In this document: positions 19,836 to 39,162 of the stretch, piece by piece | Layout: each line of letters opens with the position of its first letter | Numbering within the stretch: the first letter of the stretch is position 1 | Origin: Paludibacter propionicigenes | GTDB taxonomy: Bacteria; Bacteroidota; Bacteroidia; Bacteroidales; JAIFNL01 | Assembly (NCBI GenBank): GCA_020721325.1 | Contig: DYNA01000004.1 | Location: 1 to 61,705, forward strand | Reading direction: 5' to 3' | Length of the DNA: 61,705 nucleotides | Notes under the pieces: model-generated | Seen by the model: the letters and a program-made list of their open reading frames with translations, nothing else | Told to the model about the DNA's origin: nothing | Database searches by the model: none | Translations under genes and position numbers: made by a program

Positions 19836-20789
19836 ATTAAATATTAATCGAATAAAATTATGGTCTTATTCATTGATTTTAAATACGATAGAGATAAAAT
19901 CAGAGTTTGTTTCTTTTGTCAAAAATACAAATAAAATAGTAGTACGTTTGAATATTTTTATTTTTTTAAGAAAAAAGAAATCAACAAGATTTGTTCAAAA
20001 AAATATTCGGCTTCATTTTCAATGATTTAAAAAAAATAGCAAAAAAATACTCATGTTGATAACTTTTTTTTTGACAATTAGAATTTGTTTATTTAAGCTA
20101 TTTTTACTTTTTTTTTGTTAAAAATCTCATTTTAAGTAATATAAAAAAATGATTTTTTCTTAATTGATTAGTTTAGAAAAGGTTAAAAATTTTCTGAAAT
20201 TGACTTGAGTAAAGATATTGATATATAGGTAATTATATAAATTTTACTTTTTTTATTTTTTGTTGAAAAGATTTTTTTTTGTTTTAAAAAATGCTTTAGT
20301 TAAAAAATAAATCTCTTTTTTTTGCTATTTATTTTGATAGCCGAAAAAAGCTTAAATTTCAAAATGTTTTGAAAAAAGTAAATTTCAAAATGAAAAGTTT
20401 AAATGGTTTTTGTATCTAAAATTTAGACTTTTAGAGTCCTTTTTCGATACATTATTTAACTTTTTTTTATATAATAATTGGGTATTTTTTTTTTGCTAAA
20501 TGCAACTTTCAATCTTAAATTAATTTTAAGCGAAAATAAATTATTTAAAAAAAAAATGATTTTGCTAAATGCTTAAATAACAAAAATTTAATGGTTAATA
20601 ATTTTGTTAATAAAAGCGGTAAATTACAATATTTCAATGATTTAAAGGTATATTTTTTGTAAATTAAACTAAATTATTGATAGTAATATGAATACAAAAA
20701 AAATATGTTTTTCTTTAAAAAAAATTTTTTTTTTAGGAATTTTAATTTAATATTTGTTACAAGAAAAATGCAAAAAAATTTATTTAACA
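19836..20789. other. Candidate chromosomal replication origin (oriC) region upstream of dnaA
   Basis: Non-coding AT-rich spacer of about 0.95 kb directly upstream of dnaA. One near-consensus DnaA box, tgttgataa, lies at about 20053 (consensus tgtggataa). Several internal direct repeats are present: tttcaatgatttaaa x2, aaatttcaaaatg x2 and ttttgctaaatgc x2. No perfect DnaA boxes were seen. Confidence 0.4.
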
Positions 20790-22241
20790 ATGGAAGAAAA
20801 GAGTAAAATCATGGTGGAACATGTAGTTGTTTGGAATAGGTGTTTAGAGATTATAAAAGATAATATCCCTTCGGTAAGCTTTAAAACTTGGTTTCTTCCT
20901 ATTAAACCATTGAAACTTACCAATAAAGTATTAACTATTCAAGTACCCAGTCCTTTTTTTTATGAGTACTTAGAGGAGCAATATATTGATATTCTGCGTT
21001 CTACGCTCAAGAAAGAATTGGGAATAGGTGCGAAATTGGAATATAATGTTGTTATGGATAAGGAACGTACTGATAAACAGTTATATACGGTAGCTTATCC
21101 TGAAAAAAGTAAATCGGTGCCTGAAAATAAACCGTTTTCAATGTCGATAGCGGCGAGTGCTGATAAAAGTATTCGCAATCCCTTTGTAATTCCGGGTTTG
21201 CAGAAGTTGCATGTGGACCCGCAATTGAATGCTGAATATACTTTCAACAATTTTATTGAAGGTGAATGCAATCGTTTGGTGCGCAGTGCCGGAATTGCCG
21301 TTTCGAGTAAGCCCGGAGGCACAGCTTTTAATCCGCTTTTTATTTACGGAAATTCGGGTTTGGGTAAAACTCATTTGGCGCAAGCCATTGGTATTCAAGT
21401 GAAAGAGCAGTATCCTCAAAAAATTGTTCTTTATGTTTCTTCCAACAAATTTATCACGCAATACACCGATTCTATTCGTAAAAACAATTTGAATGATTTC
21501 ATTCATTTTTATCAAATGATTGATGTTTTGATTATTGACGATGTTCAGGAATTTGCAGGTAAGGATAAAACTCAGAATACGTTCTTCCACATTTTCAATC
21601 ACTTACAGCAGTCGGGCAAACAATTGATTTTAACTTCCGATAAGCCTCCGGTAGAATTGAAAGGCATGAATCAAAGGCTCTTGTCGCGCTTTAAATGGGG
21701 GCTGGCTGCTGAGCTTTCTAACCCCGATTATCTTACTCGATTGGCTATTTTGCGACACAAAATTTACAAGGAAGGTTTGAGCATTCCGGAAGAAGTGGTT
21801 GAATTTATTGCCACACACGTAAAAAATAACGTTCGTGAACTTGAAGGTACTCTCATTTCGCTTTTAGCGCAATCTACCTTGAATAAAAAAGAAATTACCC
21901 TTGAATTGGCTAAAGAATTGATAAATAAAATTGTTGTCAATACTAAAAAAATACTTTCAATTGATGAAATTCAAAAAATTGTTTGCGACCATTTTAATTT
22001 GAATGTAAATGTTTTGCAATCCAAATCGCGTAAGCGTGAAATTGTACAAGCGCGTCAAATGGCAATGTATTTTTCAAAAAATCTAACTAAATTTTCTTTG
22101 GCTGTTATCGGTTCAAAAATTGGCGGAAAAGACCATACAACCGTGTTACATGCCTACAAAACCATTACAAATATGTTGGAAACCGACAAAGTTTTTAAAA
22201 AAGACCTTTTTGAAATAGAACAGAAATTATTATTAGCATAA
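20790..22241 (+). CDS. dnaA: Chromosomal replication initiator protein DnaA
   Basis: Walker A GNSGLGKTHL, box VII/sensor regions and the C-terminal DNA-binding helix GGKDHTTVLHAYKTI. The start is ATG 20790 or ATG 20811; the track ORF starts at TTG 20754. Confidence 0.93.
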   Translation: MEEKSKIMVEHVVVWNRCLEIIKDNIPSVSFKTWFLPIKPLKLTNKVLTIQVPSPFFYEYLEEQYIDILRSTLKKELGIGAKLEYNVVMDKERTDKQLYTVAYPEKSKSVPENKPFSMSIAASADKSIRNPFVIPGLQKLHVDPQLNAEYTFNNFIEGECNRLVRSAGIAVSSKPGGTAFNPLFIYGNSGLGKTHLAQAIGIQVKEQYPQKIVLYVSSNKFITQYTDSIRKNNLNDFIHFYQMIDVLIIDDVQEFAGKDKTQNTFFHIFNHLQQSGKQLILTSDKPPVELKGMNQRLLSRFKWGLAAELSNPDYLTRLAILRHKIYKEGLSIPEEVVEFIATHVKNNVRELEGTLISLLAQSTLNKKEITLELAKELINKIVVNTKKILSIDEIQKIVCDHFNLNVNVLQSKSRKREIVQARQMAMYFSKNLTKFSLAVIGSKIGGKDHTTVLHAYKTITNMLETDKVFKKDLFEIEQKLLLA

Positions 22242-28196: not shown

Positions 28197-28700
28197 TTAT
28201 TCTTTAAAAATAGCATAATAAATTAAATCGATAATTTTTCCATTTTTAACAGCCGCTTTTTTCAAAACGGCTTCTTTAATGAAATTATTTTTTTCCAAAA
28301 CTTTGGTAGAAGCAATGTTAAAATCATATACTTTAGCATAAATTTTTATTACTTTTTCAAAAGTATCGAATGTATAGCTGATTATTTTACTAACTACCTC
28401 ACTCATAATGCCTTGTCCCCAATATTGCTCGCTTAACCAATAGCCCAATTCGGCTGTTATTTCGTAAATTCCTGTTTGTGGGTGAATAGAAATAACTCCA
28501 ACTGCCTCATTATTAACTACAATAGCAAATACTTTCAGCGGTTCTTCCGTTTGCTTGAGGGCGATAAAATCTACAGCATTTTGCAACAGATACGGATACG
28601 GAAATACATCGGTCAAATTATTTGCAATTTTCTGGTTATTAGCATGTTTGGCTAAAGAACCGGCATCGCTTTGTCGTAAACTTCTTAATTCAAATTTCAT
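28197..28700 (-). CDS. GNAT family N-acetyltransferase (RimJ/RimL-like)
   Basis: 167 aa. The ELGYWLSEQYWGQGIMSEVV acetyl-CoA binding block is typical of GNAT Acetyltransf_3-like proteins. Confidence 0.75.
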   Translation of the reverse strand: MKFELRSLRQSDAGSLAKHANNQKIANNLTDVFPYPYLLQNAVDFIALKQTEEPLKVFAIVVNNEAVGVISIHPQTGIYEITAELGYWLSEQYWGQGIMSEVVSKIISYTFDTFEKVIKIYAKVYDFNIASTKVLEKNNFIKEAVLKKAAVKNGKIIDLIYYAIFKE

Positions 28701-28720: not shown

Positions 28721-31700
28721 TTATTTTAATTCGGGAATAATAAATTTTTCTAAAAAACACATCCCTTCTAAAATTAACATAGAATGCTTATAATCAAATG
28801 GTTGTCCGGTTTTTGCTTGTTCGTTGGCTTTTTGCCATTCCGAATCATTTAGTATAAACGCTTTCAATTCGCGTGCAAGTTGAGCTTTTTTAGCTTCCAA
28901 TTGGGCGGCATCATTTTTTATTCCAGTAGAATTAGGACCAACAAAGCGTATAAAAATATCAAAAAATTTATTAAATTCTATAAATTTGTCCGGTATTCTA
29001 ATACCGAATTTCATATCTTTGAGATGCTCTATTTTTATTATATCGGAAGCTTTAAGTAATTGTTCTTCTCCATTTTGGGGTTGAAATACAAATCCGTTTT
29101 CGCCAAAAAGGTCTGAATTTTCGCGTACATCTGCCGATACGGTAACTTCTTGCGGAGCAGAAAGTCCTTTGGAAACTTCCGATTTATTGTCGCTACGAAT
29201 GCTATCTTTCTTTTCTAAATTGATGTGCTGGCTTCCTTCGCCAAATCCGGCTTTAAAGCATTGATTGTAATAGTTTCGGGCTTCGGTTTTTCCCGGAAAA
29301 ACATCAAGCCAATCAAAAATTCTTCCGCCTTTTCCGAAAGGTAAAAAATCGACCATTCTTACGTTTTGATATTCGTTTTCTTTCATGGCTTTTGCAATCA
29401 ACTGTCCGGAGTAAAACAAAAGTAAACCGGTAATATAAGCCGGTATCACAAACACTTCGGGCGTAAATTGCGCCAAAGAACTGTAAAAAGCTCTAAATTG
29501 CTCATCTTTTAACCGGTCGAGTATGGCATTCAGATAAAAAGGTGAAGTATTGGCTTTTTCTGTAATATCCTTAATATTAGCCACTTTAATGGGACATGCC
29601 GGACTTTCATGATACTTATAAATGGCATGTCTTACGGCATTTGAATCCTTGATTACTTCCGATAAAATTCCGGCAGCCATGCGAAGCGAACTTTGCTTAC
29701 TCAATTTATAAGCACGCGCTTTGCTATCCATTCCGAGAACCAAAATGTCTGAGGTTGAGCCACCTACGTCAATACCGAGCAAGATATTTTTTTCGTCCAA
29801 GCCAATGTTCGTTAAAGCGTAATTGCAAACCGCTTCGGCTTCGGTGCTGGGCTGGTAACTCACTTTAATTGAGTGCTTTTCGATGGGTACGTGCGAAAGT
29901 TCGTCGTACATAAGCTGATATTGTCTTACATCGAATTTTGTGAATGAACCCGGATATGACCAACGCAACTCATTGGCTAACACTTTATTAGCATACAAAT
30001 CGGCAACTGCCATAATCCAAACCGTTTTCAAATATGCTTTCTTTTTTTCTTTCCCTCTGGCATCGTTGAGCCATTTCATGCTGTGATGCAAAATTCCGGC
30101 ATTGGTCGTAATTGTGCGGTTGTCCATGCCGTGAATGACCAAATTATGCTCAAAAATAGGTACTCCACCTGCTATTTCTTCTTGTTCCATGCCGGTTGCA
30201 ACATATTGTGGCTTGTGGTCGTGAACCCACGATTTAATTTGCCCGTTGGCGGTATCTTCGTTTTGAAAAAATAAAAGTTCGTTGCGAACGGCTGTTTTTT
30301 CGCGAAAATGGTCTATAATTTCAGCACCAAGCAAAAAGATTCTTCTATTTTTGAACGGAATGGGTTCTACTTCGGAACGATTTGTACGTGAATAACTTAG
30401 ACAGGAATTGTTGCTTCCAAAATCTATTCCTATAACAGCCGTTTCAAAGTTCGTTTCATGCGATAAATCATAGATTTGTTGCCCGCCCATTGACTCGTCA
30501 TTTGGCTCTTTTACAATTAGATAGCCACAAATTCGGTCTTTTCCGCCTATCATAGCCCGAAGCTCTAAACCGGCAACCGGACGATTTGAACGAATAACTT
30601 CATACGGATGGTCTTCGCGCGTAGCCGTTGATACCGGATATTTTATCAAATGCTCAATTTTTAAATCGGGGTGATAGCCTTCGTAACCGCCATAAATTAA
30701 ATTTTCTTTATGGTCGAAAATGTAATTTCCTCCATCGTAACCATTTGATTGTGAGATATTTTTGTAAAAAGGGACAAATTTTATATCGCGTGAGTTTGAA
30801 GGATATTCGTTGTAAAAATAATATTGATTCCAATTGCGCGAAATAAAATTTGGCCACATAATTATGTTGCGTTGCACTCCGGTAAGCAGTTTAATTTCGT
30901 ATTCGCGCACTATGGGCGTTTGTTTTTTGCCATCGACTATCAAAAATAATTCCACAATGAGCTTAAAATCATTTACTTTGATGCTTGCGCGAAGTTCGTG
31001 TGAGTGTTCGAGCGAAGAATTGACCAACTCCCCTACTCTATTCTTAAACAAGCGTAAACCGTAGTTACTCAAGGGAATAGGAAAATACCACTTTTTATTT
31101 GCATTTTGGGGGTCGGTGCAAGTCATGTAATGAACGGCACTTGTTTCAAGTCGTTGTTCTTCACTTACTTGCGAAAGCGAAAAGATAAAATCGTCGTGCA
31201 TCAAAATTTTTTGCAAATCAACTTTTTGTCCGCCATTCGTTTCGTCAAAACTAAAATTTCCTTCGTTTAAAAACAAATCTTGCTTAATTCGGAAAAGTTG
31301 CGTAAATGGTTGCATAAATTCCAATTCTGCATCTAAAGCACCTTCGGTAACTAATTGAAAACCACGTGCTTTTATTTCAGAACTCCATTTTTGCACAAAC
31401 TCGAAAAGTGGAGTAAGTTTTAAATTCTCTTTGCCTTCTCTGTTTTGATTGATTTCTTTTTCAAATTCTGGTATTCTGTTTGCCAAATTATTTACCAGCA
31501 AATACAGTTTTTGCAATTGATTGTTATCAAAATTTCCAAATTCGAGCGGATTGTCAAAACGCCCGTTTCTAAACCACGGCACATCACCTTTTGCCGTAAA
31601 GGCACTGTAATCTATTCCGGTGAAAATCAAGGAGTAAGGTGAAGTTGCACCGATTAAAAGATTGTTGTAATAAATCAGTTGAATTTGGGGTTTGCTTTGC

Positions 31701-32155
31701 TTTTGTTCTTTCAAAACTTTTGGGTCGCACCACAAATCGGTATCTTCAAAGAGCATTCGCCCGAAAGCATTGGGAATATTATATAAACTGTCGAGTAAAC
31801 CCGGCGTAAATTCTATCGGTTTGCTTAAAACGATTCTGTCTGGGAAAAGTGCCAACAAAGCAATTAAGCCTTTCCACTCATTTACAATACTTTCATAAAA
31901 TTTTATTAAGCCCGAAGTATCAATATTGGCATCTTTTTGGGTGTATTTGAAGGCATAGCCAAAAACTTTTGCACGCGACCAGATGCTGGGCAAGCCCGAA
32001 ATCATATTGCTTAACACCTCAGCATCAACGTTTTCCACTAAATCGCCGGTGTTTATACCTTGAATATAAGGTGTAGCTTGCTCAAATAAATGCCAAGAAC
32101 CTTGAACGGCTTCTTTTTCGCCTACTGAACTGTTGATTAATAACGCTTTTGCCAT
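28721..32155 (-). CDS. Giant (1144 aa) protein: unrecognised N-terminal half plus a C-terminal Hsp70/actin-fold (ASKHA) ATPase-like domain
   Basis: Phosphate-1-like VIGIDFGSNNSCLSY (res 574-588; GIDFGSNNS at 30404-30430). Phosphate-2-like LLGIDVGGSTSDILVLG (res 792-808, about 29732-29782). Adenosine-like VDFLPFGKGGRIF (FLPFGKGGRIF at 29315-29347). Compare DnaK IGIDLGTTNSCVAV, DLGGGTFD and LVGGxTRxP, which have similar spacing. No TM helix or signal peptide. Confidence 0.6.
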   Translation of the reverse strand: MAKALLINSSVGEKEAVQGSWHLFEQATPYIQGINTGDLVENVDAEVLSNMISGLPSIWSRAKVFGYAFKYTQKDANIDTSGLIKFYESIVNEWKGLIALLALFPDRIVLSKPIEFTPGLLDSLYNIPNAFGRMLFEDTDLWCDPKVLKEQKQSKPQIQLIYYNNLLIGATSPYSLIFTGIDYSAFTAKGDVPWFRNGRFDNPLEFGNFDNNQLQKLYLLVNNLANRIPEFEKEINQNREGKENLKLTPLFEFVQKWSSEIKARGFQLVTEGALDAELEFMQPFTQLFRIKQDLFLNEGNFSFDETNGGQKVDLQKILMHDDFIFSLSQVSEEQRLETSAVHYMTCTDPQNANKKWYFPIPLSNYGLRLFKNRVGELVNSSLEHSHELRASIKVNDFKLIVELFLIVDGKKQTPIVREYEIKLLTGVQRNIIMWPNFISRNWNQYYFYNEYPSNSRDIKFVPFYKNISQSNGYDGGNYIFDHKENLIYGGYEGYHPDLKIEHLIKYPVSTATREDHPYEVIRSNRPVAGLELRAMIGGKDRICGYLIVKEPNDESMGGQQIYDLSHETNFETAVIGIDFGSNNSCLSYSRTNRSEVEPIPFKNRRIFLLGAEIIDHFREKTAVRNELLFFQNEDTANGQIKSWVHDHKPQYVATGMEQEEIAGGVPIFEHNLVIHGMDNRTITTNAGILHHSMKWLNDARGKEKKKAYLKTVWIMAVADLYANKVLANELRWSYPGSFTKFDVRQYQLMYDELSHVPIEKHSIKVSYQPSTEAEAVCNYALTNIGLDEKNILLGIDVGGSTSDILVLGMDSKARAYKLSKQSSLRMAAGILSEVIKDSNAVRHAIYKYHESPACPIKVANIKDITEKANTSPFYLNAILDRLKDEQFRAFYSSLAQFTPEVFVIPAYITGLLLFYSGQLIAKAMKENEYQNVRMVDFLPFGKGGRIFDWLDVFPGKTEARNYYNQCFKAGFGEGSQHINLEKKDSIRSDNKSEVSKGLSAPQEVTVSADVRENSDLFGENGFVFQPQNGEEQLLKASDIIKIEHLKDMKFGIRIPDKFIEFNKFFDIFIRFVGPNSTGIKNDAAQLEAKKAQLARELKAFILNDSEWQKANEQAKTGQPFDYKHSMLILEGMCFLEKFIIPELK

Positions 32156-32275
32156 TATTTTATATCTTTTTGTAAAATAAAATCTATTTTTTTATAAAAA
32201 AATTATGTAAACTATTTTTTTGAAAATACAATTAAAAAAAAGTAATTTCTGATTTAAAATCCCTTTTTATTTATT

Positions 32276-33865
32276 TTAATTTTCAAATCCGTAAAGCTTT
32301 ACCAAAGTTTTATACATTCGTTTAATTAATTTTTCCGATTTATTATTGATGCCTTCTTCGTCTGAAAGCTTAATAAATTCTGACTTAAATTCATCGTAAG
32401 CATTGCTGAAAATACCGGTTTTATATTCATGTTTTTCGTCATTTGGGCGATAAATCTGCTTGTTGTAAGCAAATTTATTAAGTTCTCTTTCATTGCCAAT
32501 GCTAAATAATTCAGCATTAAAAAGAAAATTATCTTGTCCGTTTGCAGACCTGTAAACTTGTCTTAACCAGCCATCTATAAGTTCTTTTTCTTTGTCTAAC
32601 GCAAAGTGAAACATGGCAAAATATTTTTTCAAGGCATTTACTTCTTCCATTAAAATGTCGTCGTAGCCGATAATTTTATTTTTTTCGAGGGTTTTGGCTT
32701 GTGCTGCTGCAAAAAAGTCCGTCTTTTCTGGGTAAACCAAAAAGGAAAGGGCTATTAACATTCCAAATTTTTTCATAAATTCTCCGACCAAATGCGAATG
32801 GACAAAGTCTTTAAAATCCAATTTTCCGTTTTCGTTCAATGCACGGAAGTAATATTGTACTTCGCGTTTATCTTCTTTAATTTCAGATAGTTCTGCTTTT
32901 TTTGTATGGAAAAAATCGTAAGCTGCAAAAGCCGTTAGCAATTCAATGTAATGAGCATCATTTTTTTGTTTTACGCCTCCGGTAACGGTTTCTTTGCCTT
33001 CTTGCTTGGTTTGAAAGTCGTTAGAAGGCGTGCCGAGCATGTAAAATTTTTGATATGTACTTTTTACGGTTTGGTCTTCGTTGTAAAACATCATGGCAAC
33101 TTGCGAATTGAGTGCAAAATTTTTAGAATTTGCAACTACCAGTTGATTAGCACGTTGCGTCTCATCGGGCGGTGGAAATTTAAAATAACTCGAAAGCAAA
33201 GTCGCTCCAAAAAAAGCTTTTGAAAGCGATTTTCCGGGTACAATGATGTTCATTGCGGCATTGAATGCCTTGGGAATGATAGGAATAGAAGATGCGCCGG
33301 TGCCTCCAAAAACCGAACCCAACACAAAAACACGCGCCGTTTGCTGTTCGCCGGCATCGAAAATGGACTGGATAAATTGCGATAAACTGCCTTTGGGATT
33401 GTCTTTAACTTCTTGTAAAATAGAGTGATACATTAGCAATGACCCCAAATGTGTTTGTGAACGATAGCCATGTTTCAAATCAAATTCGCGCACATTGTCG
33501 GTCAAAAGTAAGCGTGCCAAATCTTTTTCTTCTTTTGAAGCATAGGAATACGCCGAAAGGCTTGTAAATTTGCCGTTTTTACCAATGTTTGAGTAATCGG
33601 GGCAAAATTCAAAAAAATTGATTTTGGCACTGAAAAATGTATTTTCGAGTGCGTAATGTGTTTTGTTGTAGCCTTTTACCTTTAAATAAGTATCTTTTAC
33701 CAATTCTTTAAGGCGATTAAAATTTCCGTTTTCAAGGTCGGTATCCAATGCCAATATGTTGATTTCTGTTTTATCGTACATGCCCATGGCGCAGGTATGC
33801 ACAAATGCCTCCAACGCACGCATTCCCGTGCCTCCAATGCCTATTACAAATAGTTTATCGTTCAT
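32276..33865 (-). CDS. FtsZ/tubulin-like GTPase-domain protein (divergent, 529 aa)
   Basis: FVIGIGGTGMRALEAF (GIGGTGMR at 33818-33841) compares with FtsZ VIGVGGGGGNAV. INILALDTD (res 35-43) compares with FtsZ NTD. VFVLGSVFGGTGASSIPIIP (GGTGAS res 187-192, 33290-33307) compares with the tubulin signature [SAG]GGTG[SA]G and FtsZ GMGGGTGTGAAPV. The C-terminal half is helical with no recognisable motif. Confidence 0.55.
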   Translation of the reverse strand: MNDKLFVIGIGGTGMRALEAFVHTCAMGMYDKTEINILALDTDLENGNFNRLKELVKDTYLKVKGYNKTHYALENTFFSAKINFFEFCPDYSNIGKNGKFTSLSAYSYASKEEKDLARLLLTDNVREFDLKHGYRSQTHLGSLLMYHSILQEVKDNPKGSLSQFIQSIFDAGEQQTARVFVLGSVFGGTGASSIPIIPKAFNAAMNIIVPGKSLSKAFFGATLLSSYFKFPPPDETQRANQLVVANSKNFALNSQVAMMFYNEDQTVKSTYQKFYMLGTPSNDFQTKQEGKETVTGGVKQKNDAHYIELLTAFAAYDFFHTKKAELSEIKEDKREVQYYFRALNENGKLDFKDFVHSHLVGEFMKKFGMLIALSFLVYPEKTDFFAAAQAKTLEKNKIIGYDDILMEEVNALKKYFAMFHFALDKEKELIDGWLRQVYRSANGQDNFLFNAELFSIGNERELNKFAYNKQIYRPNDEKHEYKTGIFSNAYDEFKSEFIKLSDEEGINNKSEKLIKRMYKTLVKLYGFEN

Positions 33866-34015: not shown

Positions 34016-35407
34016 TTAAAGGGCAAAAGCATAATAAGCTTTTACGCCGTCAGCGTAAATTCCTTCTATAAAAATAGTGGTTTCTTTTTTGTTTAAAATT
34101 TCTTCCAAATCGGAAATGGTTTGAATTTCGGTTTTATTTACCGAAAGGATAATAAAACCTTCTTTTACATTGGCATTCAATAGTTTGCCGGCTTTCAATT
34201 CGGTTATTTTTAAACCGCCGACTATGTTTAAATGTTTTTTCTCTTTTTCGGTAACTTCTTGGTATTTAGCACCTAATCGTTCTAAAAGGGCGTTTTCTAA
34301 AAAAATAGAACCTTGTAAATTGGTCAATGTAACTTTCATATTTAAAAGCGAATCGCCTCGTTTGATTTTCAAATGTACTATATCGCCCGGTCGGTGCCGC
34401 GCCAATTGTTCGTATAACTCGTTGGAAGAGTTCAATTTAACTTCTTCAAAAGCCAGTAAAATATCTTTTACTTGCAGTCCGGCTTTGTCGGCAGCACCTC
34501 TGTTTTCAATTTCCGAAATGTAAATTCCTTCTATTCGCTTAATTCCTTCTTCGCGGGCAAATTTGGCATCTATGTCGTTGATTATTAAGCCTAAAACGGC
34601 TCTTTGCACTTTGCCGAACTCGCGCAAATCGCTTGTAATTTTGCGGACAATATTAATGGGAACTGCAAAAGAATAACCAACATAACTTCCTGTCCGTGAG
34701 GCTATTGCAGTGTTTATCCCTATTAAATTTCCTTCGGTATCGATTAATGCGCCGCCGCTGTTGCCCGGATTGATAGCGGCATCGGTTTGTAAGAAAGCTT
34801 CTACTGCCGAGCGTTTATCTATAATGTTGATACTTCGCGATTTAGCACTAATTATTCCGGCAGTAACCGTTGAACCCAAGCTGTACGGATTTCCGATAGC
34901 CAAAACCCAATCGCCAATTTCGAGGTTATCGGAATTTCCAAATTCGGCATAAGGTAAATTATTGGAATTGATTTTGAGTAAAGCCAAATCGGTTGTGGGG
35001 TCAAGTCCAACGATTCTTGCTTTAAAACTGCGCTTATCTATCAGATTGACTTGTATTTGACTTGATTTTTCAACCACATGAAAATTGGTAACAATGTACC
35101 CGTCGGGGCTAATGATTACGCCCGAACCTTCGGCTTCCATTGGAAAAGGCATCTGTTCATCAAAAAGAATGTCGTATAACGAATTTCCGGCACCCTCGTA
35201 GTGTGTGCGAATATGCACAACGGAATTAATGGATTTTTTTACTGAATTTCTAAAATTTGGTAAATCGTTTAACCCTAAGTTATGAACATTTTGAAGTTCT
35301 ATTTTATTCTCTTTCAATGCAATAACCGATTTATTTTCAAAAAAATGAAAATAAATGAATAATGCGAAAAAGCCTCCTAATGCCGAAATAAATAAATTTT
35401 TTAACAT
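34016..35407 (-). CDS. htrA: Do/HtrA-family periplasmic serine endoprotease with two PDZ domains
   Basis: N-terminal anchor/signal, catalytic triad contexts TNFHVV, DLALLKI and GNSGGAL, followed by two PDZ-like regions. Confidence 0.9.
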   Translation of the reverse strand: MLKNLFISALGGFFALFIYFHFFENKSVIALKENKIELQNVHNLGLNDLPNFRNSVKKSINSVVHIRTHYEGAGNSLYDILFDEQMPFPMEAEGSGVIISPDGYIVTNFHVVEKSSQIQVNLIDKRSFKARIVGLDPTTDLALLKINSNNLPYAEFGNSDNLEIGDWVLAIGNPYSLGSTVTAGIISAKSRSINIIDKRSAVEAFLQTDAAINPGNSGGALIDTEGNLIGINTAIASRTGSYVGYSFAVPINIVRKITSDLREFGKVQRAVLGLIINDIDAKFAREEGIKRIEGIYISEIENRGAADKAGLQVKDILLAFEEVKLNSSNELYEQLARHRPGDIVHLKIKRGDSLLNMKVTLTNLQGSIFLENALLERLGAKYQEVTEKEKKHLNIVGGLKITELKAGKLLNANVKEGFIILSVNKTEIQTISDLEEILNKKETTIFIEGIYADGVKAYYAFAL

Positions 35408-36036: not shown

Positions 36037-38475
36037 TTATTTTCTTTTTAGATAGAGATAATCTAAATAATATAAAATTCGGAGCGAAATGCTGTTGTTT
36101 TGGTTTGAATTTTTGAACAAATCGGAAGTATTTTCAAAATAATTGTGAATAATGGCATCGGACGAATTAAAAATACCGTTTTTCCAAACAAGGCTCAGTT
36201 CGCTTCCGGGTGCAAAATTCCATTTAAAATCGAAATCAATGGTAAAGGCATTAAAGCTAATATCTTGATTTTCTGTATATTCATCGTAGTTTTCATTGTA
36301 TCCTTGTTCGTTTAGAATGAAAAAAGAGTTGTATTTTACGGTACTCCAATAATGTCGGAGTCGAAAGTTAAAGCCCATTTTATTGTTGGGAACATACGAA
36401 AATTGTAATAAATTGATATAAGTTTTTAAATTTCGTGAACCAAAAAATATAGTATCTTCTTGTTCGTTGTGTTCTACAAATCCAATTTCATTTTTTATCT
36501 GCTGGTATGTAATTTGAAAAAGAGTAAACCATTTGTCGTTTATGCGCCAACGCGGAGATAGGAAACCTCCTATTTCTGTCTCATTGTCAGTATTTTGAAG
36601 ATAATTTGCGCCAAAGTCGAAAGCAAACTTTTTTGCATAATTTGATGAAATCCAAAAACTGGAAAGCAATTTTGGAGCTGTTTTAAAAACTTTTCCTTCT
36701 ACGCGCGGCTCAAAATAATCGTTTCCCTCAAAAGGAGTTATTTGGCTAAAAAATCCGAAAAAGAGATATTTTTTTAGCATAATTCGGTGATTGTAGGTAA
36801 GGTTGAATTTGGTATAATGGCGCGGATAGTACAAACTCGAATAAAAAATATCCAATTCATTGTTCCAGTGCAAGTAATATTTTTTTGGTTTGTTTTGGTG
36901 ATATGAAATTTCAGCAGAATAATTGACTTCGTTGGGGTTTTGTAAAAAGCCTAAGTCGTTGGGATTGTACGCTTTACTTTCAACTCGGTGCATCAATTCA
37001 AATTGATATTTTCCGCTTATTTTTTCCAATTCGAGTTCGTAGTAATATCCCAAATCGGGTTGGTTATCCATTGATTTTATGTTACTTAGCGCGCCGCTTG
37101 CCAAGAGCGAGTAATTTTGCTTTTTGTCTTTGAGCATGGTTTCAAAACCGCTTACATTTGCCGAATATTGGTCGCCAAAACGTATCAAGTGTGTATTTAT
37201 GAGGCTTGCATAAGAATTATTTGGCAGCGATTGGTTGAAAACCAGCACGTTATAATTTGTAAAAGGCTGAACACTTACTTTGCGCTCTAAGTTGGAAATT
37301 GTGTCTTGAACGCTTGCTAAAGTGTTTAAAGTCATTGCGTTAAGTGCGCCAACGCTTAAACCTTGAGCATTGGTGCCGGTTATTTTTGTAGCATTGAGCA
37401 GTTGAGTGGTTTCGGGGTTTTGTTCAATTTTTTCGTGTTCTAAAAGTTTGTCTTCCAAGCTTGTATGACTTTTTGGTTCTCCACCAATTCTGCGCGAGTG
37501 AAAAATTCCTGCTTTGTCAAAAAGTTCCATTCCTTCGGTAAAAAAACTTCTTTTTTCTGAATAAAAAGTTTCAAAAGGAGTTAAATTTAAAATTTCATCG
37601 TCCGATTGTACTTGTCCAAAATCGGGAATGAGCATCATATCGAGTGTATAGCTTTCGTTGATGCCGTATTTTAAATCCATTCCGCCTTTAAATGAGTAAC
37701 TTATGTTGTTTACTTGCGAATTGGTATTTACGTAACTCGAAAAATAGGGCGTAAACGATAAGCGCAAAGGTGGTTCAATGTTCTGTAAACCAATTAATTC
37801 GCCTGATTGACTCATCCAATCATTTTTTTCAATCGATACAAAATTCCAATTGCTTTCTTCGCGTGTACGCTTGTGTTCGCGGTAGAAATTAATGCCCCAA
37901 GCGTTTTGTTTTTCGGTTTTTGGAAATCGGATAGCCGAATACGGAATTTTTATTTCTGCTAACCAACCTTTTTCGGTACATTTTACTGAACTTTCCCAAA
38001 CCGCGTCCCAGCTATCGTCTTCGTTGCCGGTAGAAAATTTAATATCCATTTGAACTCCGGCAGCCGTTATAAAAAAGCCAAAATTAGATAACGAATTGTT
38101 GTAAGGGTCTATCACTATGGCTACAAAATCGGCTTGACCAACATCATCGCGTTGCGTGATTTGTGTTGCAATGCTATCAGGCTGATAGTCAAACATTTGA
38201 AGCGCGAAATACAAAGCCGTGTTGTCATAAGCTATTTGAATTTGAGTTTGATTTTGCGCATACCTATCGTTGTAAGGCTTTACTTGCGTAAAATTGGACG
38301 ATTTTGGAGCTTTTTCCCAAATTTCTTCATCAAAATTACCATCAATTTTGGGTGTATTTTCAATAAAAATAGCTTCTATTTGCTTTTTTTTAGTCAATTC
38401 TTCTAAATTTTGTGCAAAAGCACAAAAAGACAACATAACAAAAAAATTTGTTATAAAAAAAATTTTACTCATCAA
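36037..38475 (-). CDS. Secreted CBM9-like / DUF5916-type beta-rich protein
   Basis: Signal peptide MMSKIFFITNFFVMLSFCAFAQ. The IDGNFDEEIWEKA motif is typical of family-9 carbohydrate-binding-like domains. The long Y/F/N-rich C-terminal region is consistent with the DUF5916 architecture common in Bacteroidota. Confidence 0.55.
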   Translation of the reverse strand: MMSKIFFITNFFVMLSFCAFAQNLEELTKKKQIEAIFIENTPKIDGNFDEEIWEKAPKSSNFTQVKPYNDRYAQNQTQIQIAYDNTALYFALQMFDYQPDSIATQITQRDDVGQADFVAIVIDPYNNSLSNFGFFITAAGVQMDIKFSTGNEDDSWDAVWESSVKCTEKGWLAEIKIPYSAIRFPKTEKQNAWGINFYREHKRTREESNWNFVSIEKNDWMSQSGELIGLQNIEPPLRLSFTPYFSSYVNTNSQVNNISYSFKGGMDLKYGINESYTLDMMLIPDFGQVQSDDEILNLTPFETFYSEKRSFFTEGMELFDKAGIFHSRRIGGEPKSHTSLEDKLLEHEKIEQNPETTQLLNATKITGTNAQGLSVGALNAMTLNTLASVQDTISNLERKVSVQPFTNYNVLVFNQSLPNNSYASLINTHLIRFGDQYSANVSGFETMLKDKKQNYSLLASGALSNIKSMDNQPDLGYYYELELEKISGKYQFELMHRVESKAYNPNDLGFLQNPNEVNYSAEISYHQNKPKKYYLHWNNELDIFYSSLYYPRHYTKFNLTYNHRIMLKKYLFFGFFSQITPFEGNDYFEPRVEGKVFKTAPKLLSSFWISSNYAKKFAFDFGANYLQNTDNETEIGGFLSPRWRINDKWFTLFQITYQQIKNEIGFVEHNEQEDTIFFGSRNLKTYINLLQFSYVPNNKMGFNFRLRHYWSTVKYNSFFILNEQGYNENYDEYTENQDISFNAFTIDFDFKWNFAPGSELSLVWKNGIFNSSDAIIHNYFENTSDLFKNSNQNNSISLRILYYLDYLYLKRK

Positions 38476-38550: not shown

Positions 38551-39162
38551 TTAATTTACATCATATTCTTTCACTTCTTTAGAAACGCCCATTTCAAAAA
38601 GCTCTTCGTATTCTAATTTTCCTTCTTCTGTCCAGTATCTAAACCAGCCGTTTTGTTTACCGTTTCGGTAAGGTTCAATAGCCGAAACCTTGCCATTTTC
38701 CCACCAAGTAGTTTCTACACCGTCTTTCACATTGTTTACAAAGGTTTTTTCCGATTCTTTTACTTTGTTTTCAAACCATGTAGTAAAAATGCCATTTTTC
38801 TGATTATTAGACATATAACCTTCTCTTTCGGGATTTCCGTTTTCAAAATACGAAATGGTGCGACCGTTCATTTTTCCACTTGAGTAAACCATTTCGGTTT
38901 TTAAATTACCGTTTTCGTACCATTCTTTGTATTCGCCATCGTACAAACCTCCGTTTACTGTAAATTTGGTTTTTAATTTCGTGCCACTGTGATAATCTAC
39001 TATAACACCCGTATAAGGTGTACTACTTCCTGTTTTATAATACTTATCATCTTTTATTTCAGTGTCGGAAATTTTTATTTGTGCAATCGATGTTAACGAA
39101 AAGCCTAATAAAATTATTAAAACCAGAATGTTATATAAATTTTTCATTGATAGTAAGTTCAA
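38551..39162 (-). CDS. MORN-repeat-variant (YwqK-like) secreted protein
   Basis: Signal peptide followed by repeated G-x-Y-x-E-W-Y-E-N-G-like units (YKEWYENGNLK, ISYFENGNPE, TTWFENKVK, TTWWENGKV, FRYWTEEGKL). Confidence 0.7.
   Translation of the reverse strand: MNLLSMKNLYNILVLIILLGFSLTSIAQIKISDTEIKDDKYYKTGSSTPYTGVIVDYHSGTKLKTKFTVNGGLYDGEYKEWYENGNLKTEMVYSSGKMNGRTISYFENGNPEREGYMSNNQKNGIFTTWFENKVKESEKTFVNNVKDGVETTWWENGKVSAIEPYRNGKQNGWFRYWTEEGKLEYEELFEMGVSKEVKEYDVN

Follow-up and report, generated by a model that had tools for sequence, protein, structure and literature searches.

What is a protein of 1144 residues doing with an Hsp70-type ATPase domain embedded in its middle, between flanks that match nothing in the domain libraries? 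The question is raised by an open reading frame (ORF) on the minus strand of contig DYNA01000004.1 from Paludibacter propionicigenes (28721..32155, ATG start). It lies in a stretch of 61.7 kb with ~32% G+C, which was analysed as a whole and is called the window here. A first-pass annotation, made from the letters alone, had described the product as an Hsp70-like nucleotide-binding domain (NBD) fused to a large orphan region. That account proved incomplete rather than wrong, as it missed a tubulin-like operon partner and a larger gene system of which these two genes are the invariant core. The answer that we favour is that the giant protein, as we call this product (family F0), may act as an ATP-driven partner of its tubulin-like neighbour.

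The Hsp70-type domain and its flanking regions

The AlphaFold2 model of the giant protein, built on an alignment of its homologues, has a mean predicted local distance difference test score (pLDDT) of 84 and a predicted template-modelling score (pTM) of 0.74, the latter suggesting a compact multi-domain body. When the model was compared with the PDB by Foldseek, the top 50 matches were all Hsp70 NBDs or full-length Hsp70s (E 2e-8 to 1.5e-7, target template-modelling (TM) score ~0.5), among them DnaK, BiP, Hsc70, Ssb, Ssz1, and mortalin, and no actin-like chain was found among these 50. The giant protein is 9-15% identical in sequence to the Hsp70s so matched. Among the families of the actin/Hsp70/sugar-kinase (ASKHA) ATPase fold, that of its NBD is therefore closest to Hsp70 by this top-50 comparison, in agreement with the earlier judgement that the core resembles Hsp70 more than the actin-like families.

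At the level of sequence, hhalign aligned the giant family with the NBD of DnaK at E 3.3e-4, bringing together the phosphate-1 and phosphate-2 regions. A profile search against PDB sequences returned sub-threshold Hsp70 matches (E 0.17-1.9), Ssz1 and mortalin among them, in the same two regions, with Ssz1 among the closest, as well as a weak match to an actin-family chain (8r2n, E 0.22); phmmer matches to PDB sequences also fell below threshold. The protein matched no model of Pfam, the HSP70 model included, nor any of NCBIfam or PADLOC (E ≤ 1) or PHROGs (E ≤ 0.1). Because neither the Pfam HSP70 model nor any other library model matches, we conclude that there is no canonical substrate-binding domain, and because the family-model and substrate-binding-domain tests both fail, the giant protein is placed outside the Hsp70 family proper (PF00012).

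The domain occupies residues ~566-1012 (29120..30460, minus strand), with limits taken from the secondary structure of the model. The first proposal, residues 570-960, had caught the core of the domain and undercut its extent. Four motifs on the minus strand were checked by translation, namely phosphate-1 GIDFGSNNSC (G576-C585, 30401..30430), connect-1 TEAEAV (T771-V776, 29828..29845), phosphate-2 GIDVGGSTSD (G794-D803, 29747..29776), and the adenosine motif FGKGGR (F940-R945, 29321..29338); the phosphate-2 motif aligns with DLGGGTFD of DnaK. Conservation was assessed in an alignment of 32 full-length homologues that are 29-67% identical to the window protein. Invariant in all of them are G576, D578, F579, G580, S581, and N583 of phosphate-1, E772 of connect-1, G794, D796, G798, G799, and T801 of phosphate-2, and G941, K942, G943, and G944 of the adenosine motif. 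The invariant glutamate E772 falls within 1-2 residues of the position of the catalytic E171 of DnaK. The fold match, together with invariant DxG, DxGGxT, and GG motifs, identifies an ASKHA domain of two RNase-H-like lobes, and on the strength of model and motifs residues ~566-1012 are an Hsp70-type NBD in which the motifs for ATP binding and hydrolysis are intact. The embedded Hsp70-like domain of the first-pass annotation is thereby upheld, and so is the conservation of catalytic motifs in homologues that it had named as a check.

Ahead of the domain lie 565 family-specific residues. The first 285 (31301..32155, minus strand) are modelled as mostly helical and match no library entry, whereas residues 286-565 (30461..31300, same strand) are beta-rich by model secondary structure and possibly form tandem beta-sandwiches. 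A separate AlphaFold2 model of residues 1-565 has a pLDDT of 79, and its comparison with the PDB and BFVD gave no match better than E 1e-3. The best matches were antibody Fab light chains and poxvirus interleukin-1-binding proteins, at a TM score of ~0.2 and a root-mean-square deviation of ~18-20 Å; these Fab- and Ig-like matches to the model are only a hint of tandem beta-sandwiches in residues 286-565. An assignment of the N-terminal region to FN3 or Ig domains was not made, as the matches are weak (E ~1e-3, TM 0.2), and no FN3 match was found in the giant protein with Pfam. The orphan character claimed for this region therefore stands: no library recognizes it, no known domain surfaced to explain it, and the ASKHA motifs beside it are conserved. 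The comparison that had been suggested, with SrfB-like and other large proteins said to contain an ASKHA domain, drew nothing, as no Pfam model matched at E ≤ 1 (SrfB included if it is in the library), and no srfA- or srfC-like neighbours were seen around the giant gene.

On the other side of the NBD, the C-terminal region (residues 1013-1144 plus stop codon, 28721..29119, minus strand) is modelled as short strands followed by helices, at residues 1059-1072, 1084-1102, 1105-1115, and 1126-1143, so that the helical end described for this tail is seen in the AlphaFold2 model. These ~130 mostly helical residues without a Pfam match leave no beta-sandwich substrate-binding domain with a lid, as had been stated at the outset, and may represent a vestigial lid-like bundle.

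Across homologues, mean identity is 48% in residues 1-285, 38% in residues 286-565, 52% in the NBD, and 39% in the C-terminal region. When the window protein was compared with its orthologue at the 89%-identical locus L006, the ratio of nonsynonymous to synonymous substitution rates (dN/dS) came to 0.05, 0.07, 0.03, and 0.11 in these regions, in that order, with dS near saturation. Judged from these alignments, all four regions are under purifying selection. Most of the invariant N-terminal residues are W, P, G, F, or Y; the set includes W21, P56, W59, R61, E93, and G96 and, farther along, W434, P435, F437, W442, Y445, and Y448. Two segments modelled with low confidence (pLDDT <50) include or adjoin such residues: residues 49-61 (31975-32011), in which pLDDT is low for residues 49-57 specifically, with P56, W59, and R61, and residues 122-135 (31751-31792), with G132 and L135. 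Conserved segments of low model confidence suggest a partner-binding surface, and, in combination with the W/P/G/F/Y pattern, they would fit an interface that becomes ordered on binding rather than an enzyme active site. Of the two functions offered for this region before, effector or assembly, the pattern thus favours the second, in which the region would serve as scaffold or interface and not as an enzyme.

The tubulin-like partner and the gene system of the pair

Directly upstream of the giant gene, on the same strand, is the gene for a 529-residue protein (32276..33865; family F1) that begins MNDKLFVIGIGGTGMR and is a divergent GTPase of the tubulin/FtsZ superfamily. It contains a T1-type glycine loop, GIGGTG (33824..33841, minus strand), in which G11, G12, T13, and G14 are invariant, and a T4 tubulin-signature loop, VFGGTGAS (33290..33313, minus strand), in which G187, G188, T189, G190, A191, and S192 are invariant. 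The window copy of F1 matches the Pfam models Tubulin_2 (E 3.1e-5) and Tubulin (E 7e-3); among 25 diverse members of the family, 21 match the former and 20 the latter. The family profile aligns its T4 region with that of the archaeal tubulin-family protein CetZ (3zid), and some homologues carry the NCBI name 'tubulin-like doman-containing protein' (sic). In Pfam, the 'FtsZ-like' proteins that Makarova & Koonin described are modelled by Tubulin_2 (PMC9871819).

A search of 5.8 billion proteins returned 82 homologues of the giant protein, most of them full length (1125-1228 residues) and a few truncated at contig ends. All are unnamed or 'hypothetical', and those with an organism name come from Bacteroidota. 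An exhaustive profile search gave 1544 clusters at 50% identity with E ≤ 1e-3, of which 276 have E ≤ 1e-30. For gene order we used 58 loci (the window, 53 from a scan of GTDB species genomes, and 4 from exact look-ups of three homologues), in all of which ORFs were called and clustered by BLASTP into families; representatives of these families were scanned against Pfam. The carriers are nearly all Bacteroidota, from Bacteroidales (including Segatella copri, Prevotella, Paraprevotella, Tannerella, Porphyromonas, Muribaculaceae, and Paludibacteraceae), Flavobacteriales, Cytophagales, Sphingobacteriales, Saprospiraceae, and Chitinophaga. Two loci sit in bins with other labels, L045 in Saccharibacteria and L057 in Lachnospiraceae, and may be mis-binned; for L045 this is likely because its gene content is near-identical to that of L046, a Bacteroidales genome.

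In 54 of the 58 loci the tubulin-like gene is the immediate upstream neighbour of the giant gene; the remaining cases appear for the most part to be contig ends or broken ORFs. The gaps between the two genes are mostly -4 to 30 bp (53 measured, 52 of them outside the window). Such adjacency at near-zero spacing, kept in relatives down to ~23% identity, is hard to explain without functional coupling. In the window the two are separated by an AT-rich spacer of 120 bp (32156..32275, minus strand); no hairpin resembling a terminator was reported on the minus strand of this spacer. L005, L006, and L009, the closest relatives, likewise keep only these two genes, and the pair thus survives the loss of everything else.

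In its full form the operon usually reads F3, F2, F1, F0, F4, followed by one of two modules. F3, a lipoprotein of ~450-550 residues with an LxSCG lipobox, heads the operon (38 loci); F2 is a multi-pass membrane protein of ~110-150 residues (40 loci); and F4, of 450-1050 residues with TPR or coiled-coil C-terminal parts, directly follows the giant gene (37 loci). Module A comprises TerD proteins (22 of 58 loci), a membrane protein with a peptidoglycan-binding CW_7 domain (15), and a P-type cation ATPase (11). Its TerD assignment rests on PF02342 at E 1e-42 and, for a set called F6, on a TerD-like hhalign match at E 5.6e-5; at L044 there are four paralogues of the TerD family, of which three are consecutive. 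Module B, present in 7 of 58 loci, comprises a zinc-ribbon DO-GTPase (PF19975/PF19993), an 800-residue GAP1 protein, and a membrane-anchored DO-GTPase. DO-GTPase1/2 matches were obtained in families F10 and F12, and the GAP1 protein (F11) matches GAP1-N2 in three of seven members (best E 1e-7) and GAP1-M in two (best E 4.4e-6). Transposase genes are found near L003.

Two of the accessory proteins drew attention in their own right. The N-terminal domain of F4 (~380 residues; L004 7261-9747, L029 12319-14358) is co-linear with the DnaK NBD over 185 columns. By hhalign the match is not significant (E 0.047, probability 1%), with the TPS..VG..AK, VPAYF, and LGGEDFD regions aligned; F4 lacks the phosphate motifs, its PDB profile search gave one Hsp70 match (E 0.89), and hhalign against the giant family found nothing. 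It may be that a second Hsp70-like domain has degenerated here and is joined to the TPR or coiled-coil parts. In F3 (L004 391-1755), an invariant D58-x-S60 and a 'LITDFEEY' block, in the pattern 'YxDxSxGM ... LITDFEEY', recall the MIDAS site and a beta-strand of vWA domains. We do not claim F3 as a vWA protein, as the resemblance is at motif level and searches with Pfam and PDB profiles gave no match.

The same core reaches beyond these loci. The weakest match of the first search, a protein of 985 residues, can be aligned with the giant family along 855 columns, which take in the N-terminal region (hhalign E 6e-28). It stands for at least 335 additional clusters, among them one with the name Candidatus Poribacteria. 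Three loci of this distant branch share one core order, i.e., a protein of ~460 residues, one of ~157 residues, a Tubulin_2 protein (484-491 residues), and the giant protein (985-1040 residues). The core is followed by a protein of 277-364 residues and one of 549-764 residues with coiled-coil-type Pfam matches (Apolipoprotein, ATG17_like), and in two of the three loci (L059 and L060) an OmpA-domain protein and a protein of 309-319 residues come next. What L059 and L060 add is thus the OmpA-domain protein and a long apolipoprotein-like coiled-coil protein. The genomes of the branch measure 5-6 Mb; a Rep3 replication protein is encoded near L058, and restriction-modification-like and anti-Pycsar-like genes are found near L060.

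In a long subfamily of 1250-1490 residues (L029, L035-L039, L042-L053), the NBD is interrupted by an insertion near profile position 760, just ahead of the connect-1/phosphate-2 region. In one member, P0265, this part of the protein (residues ~843-945) contains double zinc ribbons (PF12773, E 3e-13), which recall the N-terminal zinc ribbons of DO-GTPases.

Around the pair, the neighbours of the giant ORF in the window are ordinary chromosomal genes. Upstream of the pair lie an HtrA/DegP-type protease (34016-35407) and, beyond it on the minus strand, an 812-residue DUF5916/CBM9 protein (36037-38475, E 3e-191) and a 203-residue MORN-repeat protein (38551-39162), both of which appear unrelated to the pair; a CLC channel gene is also found upstream. 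Downstream, a GNAT acetyltransferase gene (28197-28700, minus strand; PF13302, E 5e-22) starts 20 bp past the giant stop codon and may be co-transcribed with the giant gene. It occupies the same place at L006 and is absent there in more distant loci. Farther downstream come a small lipoprotein-like ORF, a GAF protein, cysH, dapA, dnaA, and purL. The dnaA gene (20754-22241) is ~6.5 kb away from the giant gene, with ~900 bp of low-G+C spacer upstream of it (region 19836-22241). The window contains 20 DnaA-box matches where 16.4 are expected, which is no enrichment, so a replication origin near dnaA is not supported by this test. A scan for sigma-70 promoters is uninformative for Bacteroidota.

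A proposed role for the pair

We consider it about as probable as not, at roughly 0.5, that the giant protein, a cytoplasmic ATPase paired in its operon with the tubulin-like GTPase, is an ATP-driven partner or regulator of tubulin-like assembly, a reading built by analogy. The tubulin-like protein would assemble with GTP, and ATP would drive the opening and closing of the Hsp70-like lobes of the giant protein, a motion that could be passed to its own N- and C-terminal domains. The giant protein would bind the tubulin-like assembly as its one dedicated client and then nucleate it, anchor it, or dismantle and recycle it. The logic would be the same as that by which FtsA, an actin-fold ATPase, acts on FtsZ, or by which Hsp70 clamps a client. 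In favour of this reading, the N-terminal region is conserved almost like the NBD (48% vs 52% identity), and the four-gene order is kept in the distant branch.

The biological role can be placed only more weakly, as a membrane- or wall-proximal response to envelope damage or to invading elements. The link to the envelope comes from the lipobox of F3, the membrane protein F2, and the CW_7, P-type ATPase, TerD, and OmpA proteins that relatives carry, and the link to conflict systems from their DO-GTPase/GAP1-N2 module.

Several observations weigh against our reading. In the NBD, the register of E772 against E171 of DnaK is uncertain and differs between alignments, and a counterpart of K70 of DnaK was not mapped. 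The tubulin-like protein of the window scores below the Pfam gathering cut-offs (Tubulin_2 23.8 bits vs 27), its T7 loop was not identified, and the 120-bp spacer ahead of the giant gene is longer than in most relatives. Contact between the two proteins, nucleotide hydrolysis, and tubulin-like polymerization are what we infer from sequence. A search of the six-frame translation of the window with 13 accessory-family profiles (hmmsearch, E ≤ 1) found no membrane, TerD, or GTPase accessory component, the only match being to F5 at E 0.14. As the window lacks these components and its pair sits among housekeeping genes (dnaA, purL, dapA, cysH, htrA), a role at the envelope or in conflict is extrapolated from relatives. 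The system of the window has no PADLOC match, and tblastn against 72,556 plasmid and 50,697 phage records gave no match. A mobile-element origin of the locus was rejected in view of this result and the housekeeping context.

Alternatively, the pair would be the assembling effector arm of an anti-phage or other conflict system of the kind that Kaur et al. (2020) described, killing or arresting the infected cell, and the window would contain a stripped-down or decaying copy. The GAP1-N2-type DO-GTPase module directly downstream in 7 of 58 loci would suit such a system, as would the variable accessory gene sets, the transposase genes of L003, and the restriction-modification-like and anti-Pycsar-like genes of L060. 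So would the TerD proteins of 22 loci, TerD being a family tied to phage and stress resistance. However, no recognizable toxic effector was found in the core, which has no PADLOC match and no plasmid or phage copy, and the window locus is embedded in housekeeping genes. Decay is contradicted by dN/dS values of 0.03-0.11 and intact motifs, on which grounds we regard the genes of the window as not decaying. In contrast to typical defence islands, which shuffle fast, the order of the core is stable across distant lineages. We therefore find the conflict reading unlikely.

A filament of the giant protein itself seems rather less probable again. Here the ASKHA domain would polymerize as in ParM, MreB, MamK, or FtsA, and the pair would form two parallel or co-assembling filament systems. 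The ASKHA fold is common to all actin-like filament formers, the actin-family chain 8r2n is among the weak profile matches (E 0.22), and a cytoskeleton would be a fitting context for the coiled-coil accessory proteins and the peptidoglycan anchors. Nevertheless, the top 50 structural matches are all Hsp70 and none is actin-like, both phosphate motifs are of the Hsp70 type, and the ~700 extra residues that the model packs around the domain (pTM 0.74) would probably obstruct actin-like longitudinal contacts. Ssz1 and Hsp110 are Hsp70 relatives with altered or inactive substrate handling, and the existence of such relatives, Ssz1 being among the closest profile matches, is, with the intact NBD, what speaks for a free-standing atypical Hsp70-like chaperone or nucleotide-exchange-type factor with a new substrate-binding module in its N-terminal region and an unrelated tubulin-like neighbour. 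This explanation is very improbable, as 54 of 58 loci have the tubulin-like gene next to the giant gene, with almost no spacing and in relatives down to ~23% identity. Moreover, no J-domain (DnaJ) or GrpE gene was noticed in the annotated loci, whose family representatives were scanned against Pfam, although co-chaperone genes may lie elsewhere.

If the giant protein is indeed a partner of tubulin-like assembly, a bolder and so far doubtful version is that the pair forms a composite nucleotide-driven machine, in which an Hsp70-fold ATPase with built-in client domains nucleates, anchors, or recycles a tubulin-superfamily polymer at the envelope. Such a machine, if real, would be a third partnership of actin fold and tubulin fold beside FtsA-FtsZ and the eukaryotic tubulin chaperones, with an N-terminal fold new to structural biology, and would be widespread in Bacteroidota, gut Prevotella and Segatella among them, and beyond.

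Bacterial tubulin-like and actin- or Hsp70-like proteins are usually studied separately, FtsA-FtsZ being the main exception. The family (~1500 clusters at 50% identity) reaches Bacteroidales of the human and animal gut (Segatella copri, Prevotella, Tannerella, Porphyromonas) as well as environmental Bacteroidota. No member has been characterized, and none of the four model libraries searched covers the giant protein. As the smallest natural form of the system, the pair in the window is a good starting point for biochemistry. Such work would assign a function to ~700 conserved residues that now match nothing, and would give experimental footing to two sets of purely computational predictions, the 'membrane remodelling' proposed for FtsZ-like proteins in 2010 and the 'GTPase-centric conflict' proposed in 2020.

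Comparison with known systems

The giant family shares with Hsp70/DnaK the same fold and the same four motif types, which are invariant in it. It differs in having no Pfam HSP70 match, no beta-sandwich substrate-binding domain, and no canonical lid, and in carrying its NBD in mid-protein after 565 family-specific residues.

The pair resembles FtsA-FtsZ in that an ASKHA-fold ATPase and a tubulin/FtsZ-superfamily GTPase are operon-linked and both appear membrane-proximal, an analogy drawn from what is known of the divisome. FtsA, an actin-like protein of ~420 residues, has a 1C subdomain and, at its C terminus, an amphipathic helix. In the present pair the ATPase has 1144 residues and is Hsp70-like, and the GTPase, of 529 residues, is of the Tubulin_2 type and lacks FtsZ_C; no homology to FtsA-FtsZ was found beyond the superfamily level. 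The Ter systems meet the giant operon in the TerD or TerD-like genes (22 of 58 loci) and the P-type ATPase (11 of 58) that follow it, whereas the window contains no Ter component. The classic ter operon is not known to have tubulin-like or Hsp70-like genes.

Modules with tubulin or HSP70 are, as a general idea, not new. Kaur, Burroughs, Iyer & Aravind (2020) described 'GTPase-centric' conflict systems built on GAP1-N2-type DO-GTPases with tubulin or HSP70 themes (PMC7159879). In their main text the two themes are non-overlapping and essentially confined to Firmicutes and Actinobacteria, with a canonical HSP70 and GrpE; the authors also note HSP70-only proteins that lack a peptide-binding domain, as well as partners fused to TPR, and Bacteroidetes are mentioned for other system types only (PMC7159879). 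Exactly their module of a zinc-ribbon (ZnR) DO-GTPase, GAP1 (GAP1-N2 + GAP1-M), and a TM-DO-GTPase follows the giant/tubulin-like operon in 7 of 58 loci. However, tubulin and Hsp70 folds are here combined in one operon, in Bacteroidota and in the branch that contains Poribacteria, and a giant family of 1100-1470 residues is not described in the main text of that paper. In the giant system the DO-GTPase/GAP1 module is optional. The published systems are further marked by a GAP1-C domain in the GAP1 protein and by a component with FNIII repeats; for the latter, Pfam gave no FN3 match here, and residues 286-565 of the giant protein resemble Ig-like sandwiches weakly. The window itself has both linked genes, tubulin and HSP70, side by side, and no DO-GTPase or GAP1 gene was found in its 61.7 kb with F10, F12, and other profiles (E ≤ 1).

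Makarova & Koonin (2010) described FtsZl1 as a protein of ~900-1200 residues that combines a long coiled coil with a C-terminal helical domain and whose operons also encode vWA proteins, OmpA proteins, and members of a new GTPase family, and their supplement records a 1626-residue COG0443 (DnaK-like) protein next to FtsZl1 in Magnetospirillum (PMC2875224). The present system likewise has a divergent Tubulin_2-type GTPase in an operon with large uncharacterized proteins, membrane and OmpA-family proteins, and a new GTPase family, and the FtsZ-like GTPase signature of the GGGTG(S/T)G type is present, as both glycine loops are invariant in F1. The tubulin-like partner is shorter, with 529 residues in the window and 490-631 in full-length copies elsewhere, and lacks the coiled coil and the helical C-terminal domain, as judged by its length and the absence of a Pfam match. 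A profile search found no vWA gene in the window, and the F3 proteins of relatives have a vWA-like pattern with no Pfam match. Our literature search found no paper that combines tubulin-like and Hsp70 proteins with anti-phage function or as a Bacteroidetes operon. The giant system differs from both published kinds in its short Tubulin_2 protein, its invariant giant Hsp70-NBD partner with an orphan N-terminal half, the union of both folds in one operon, and a GTPase module that is optional.

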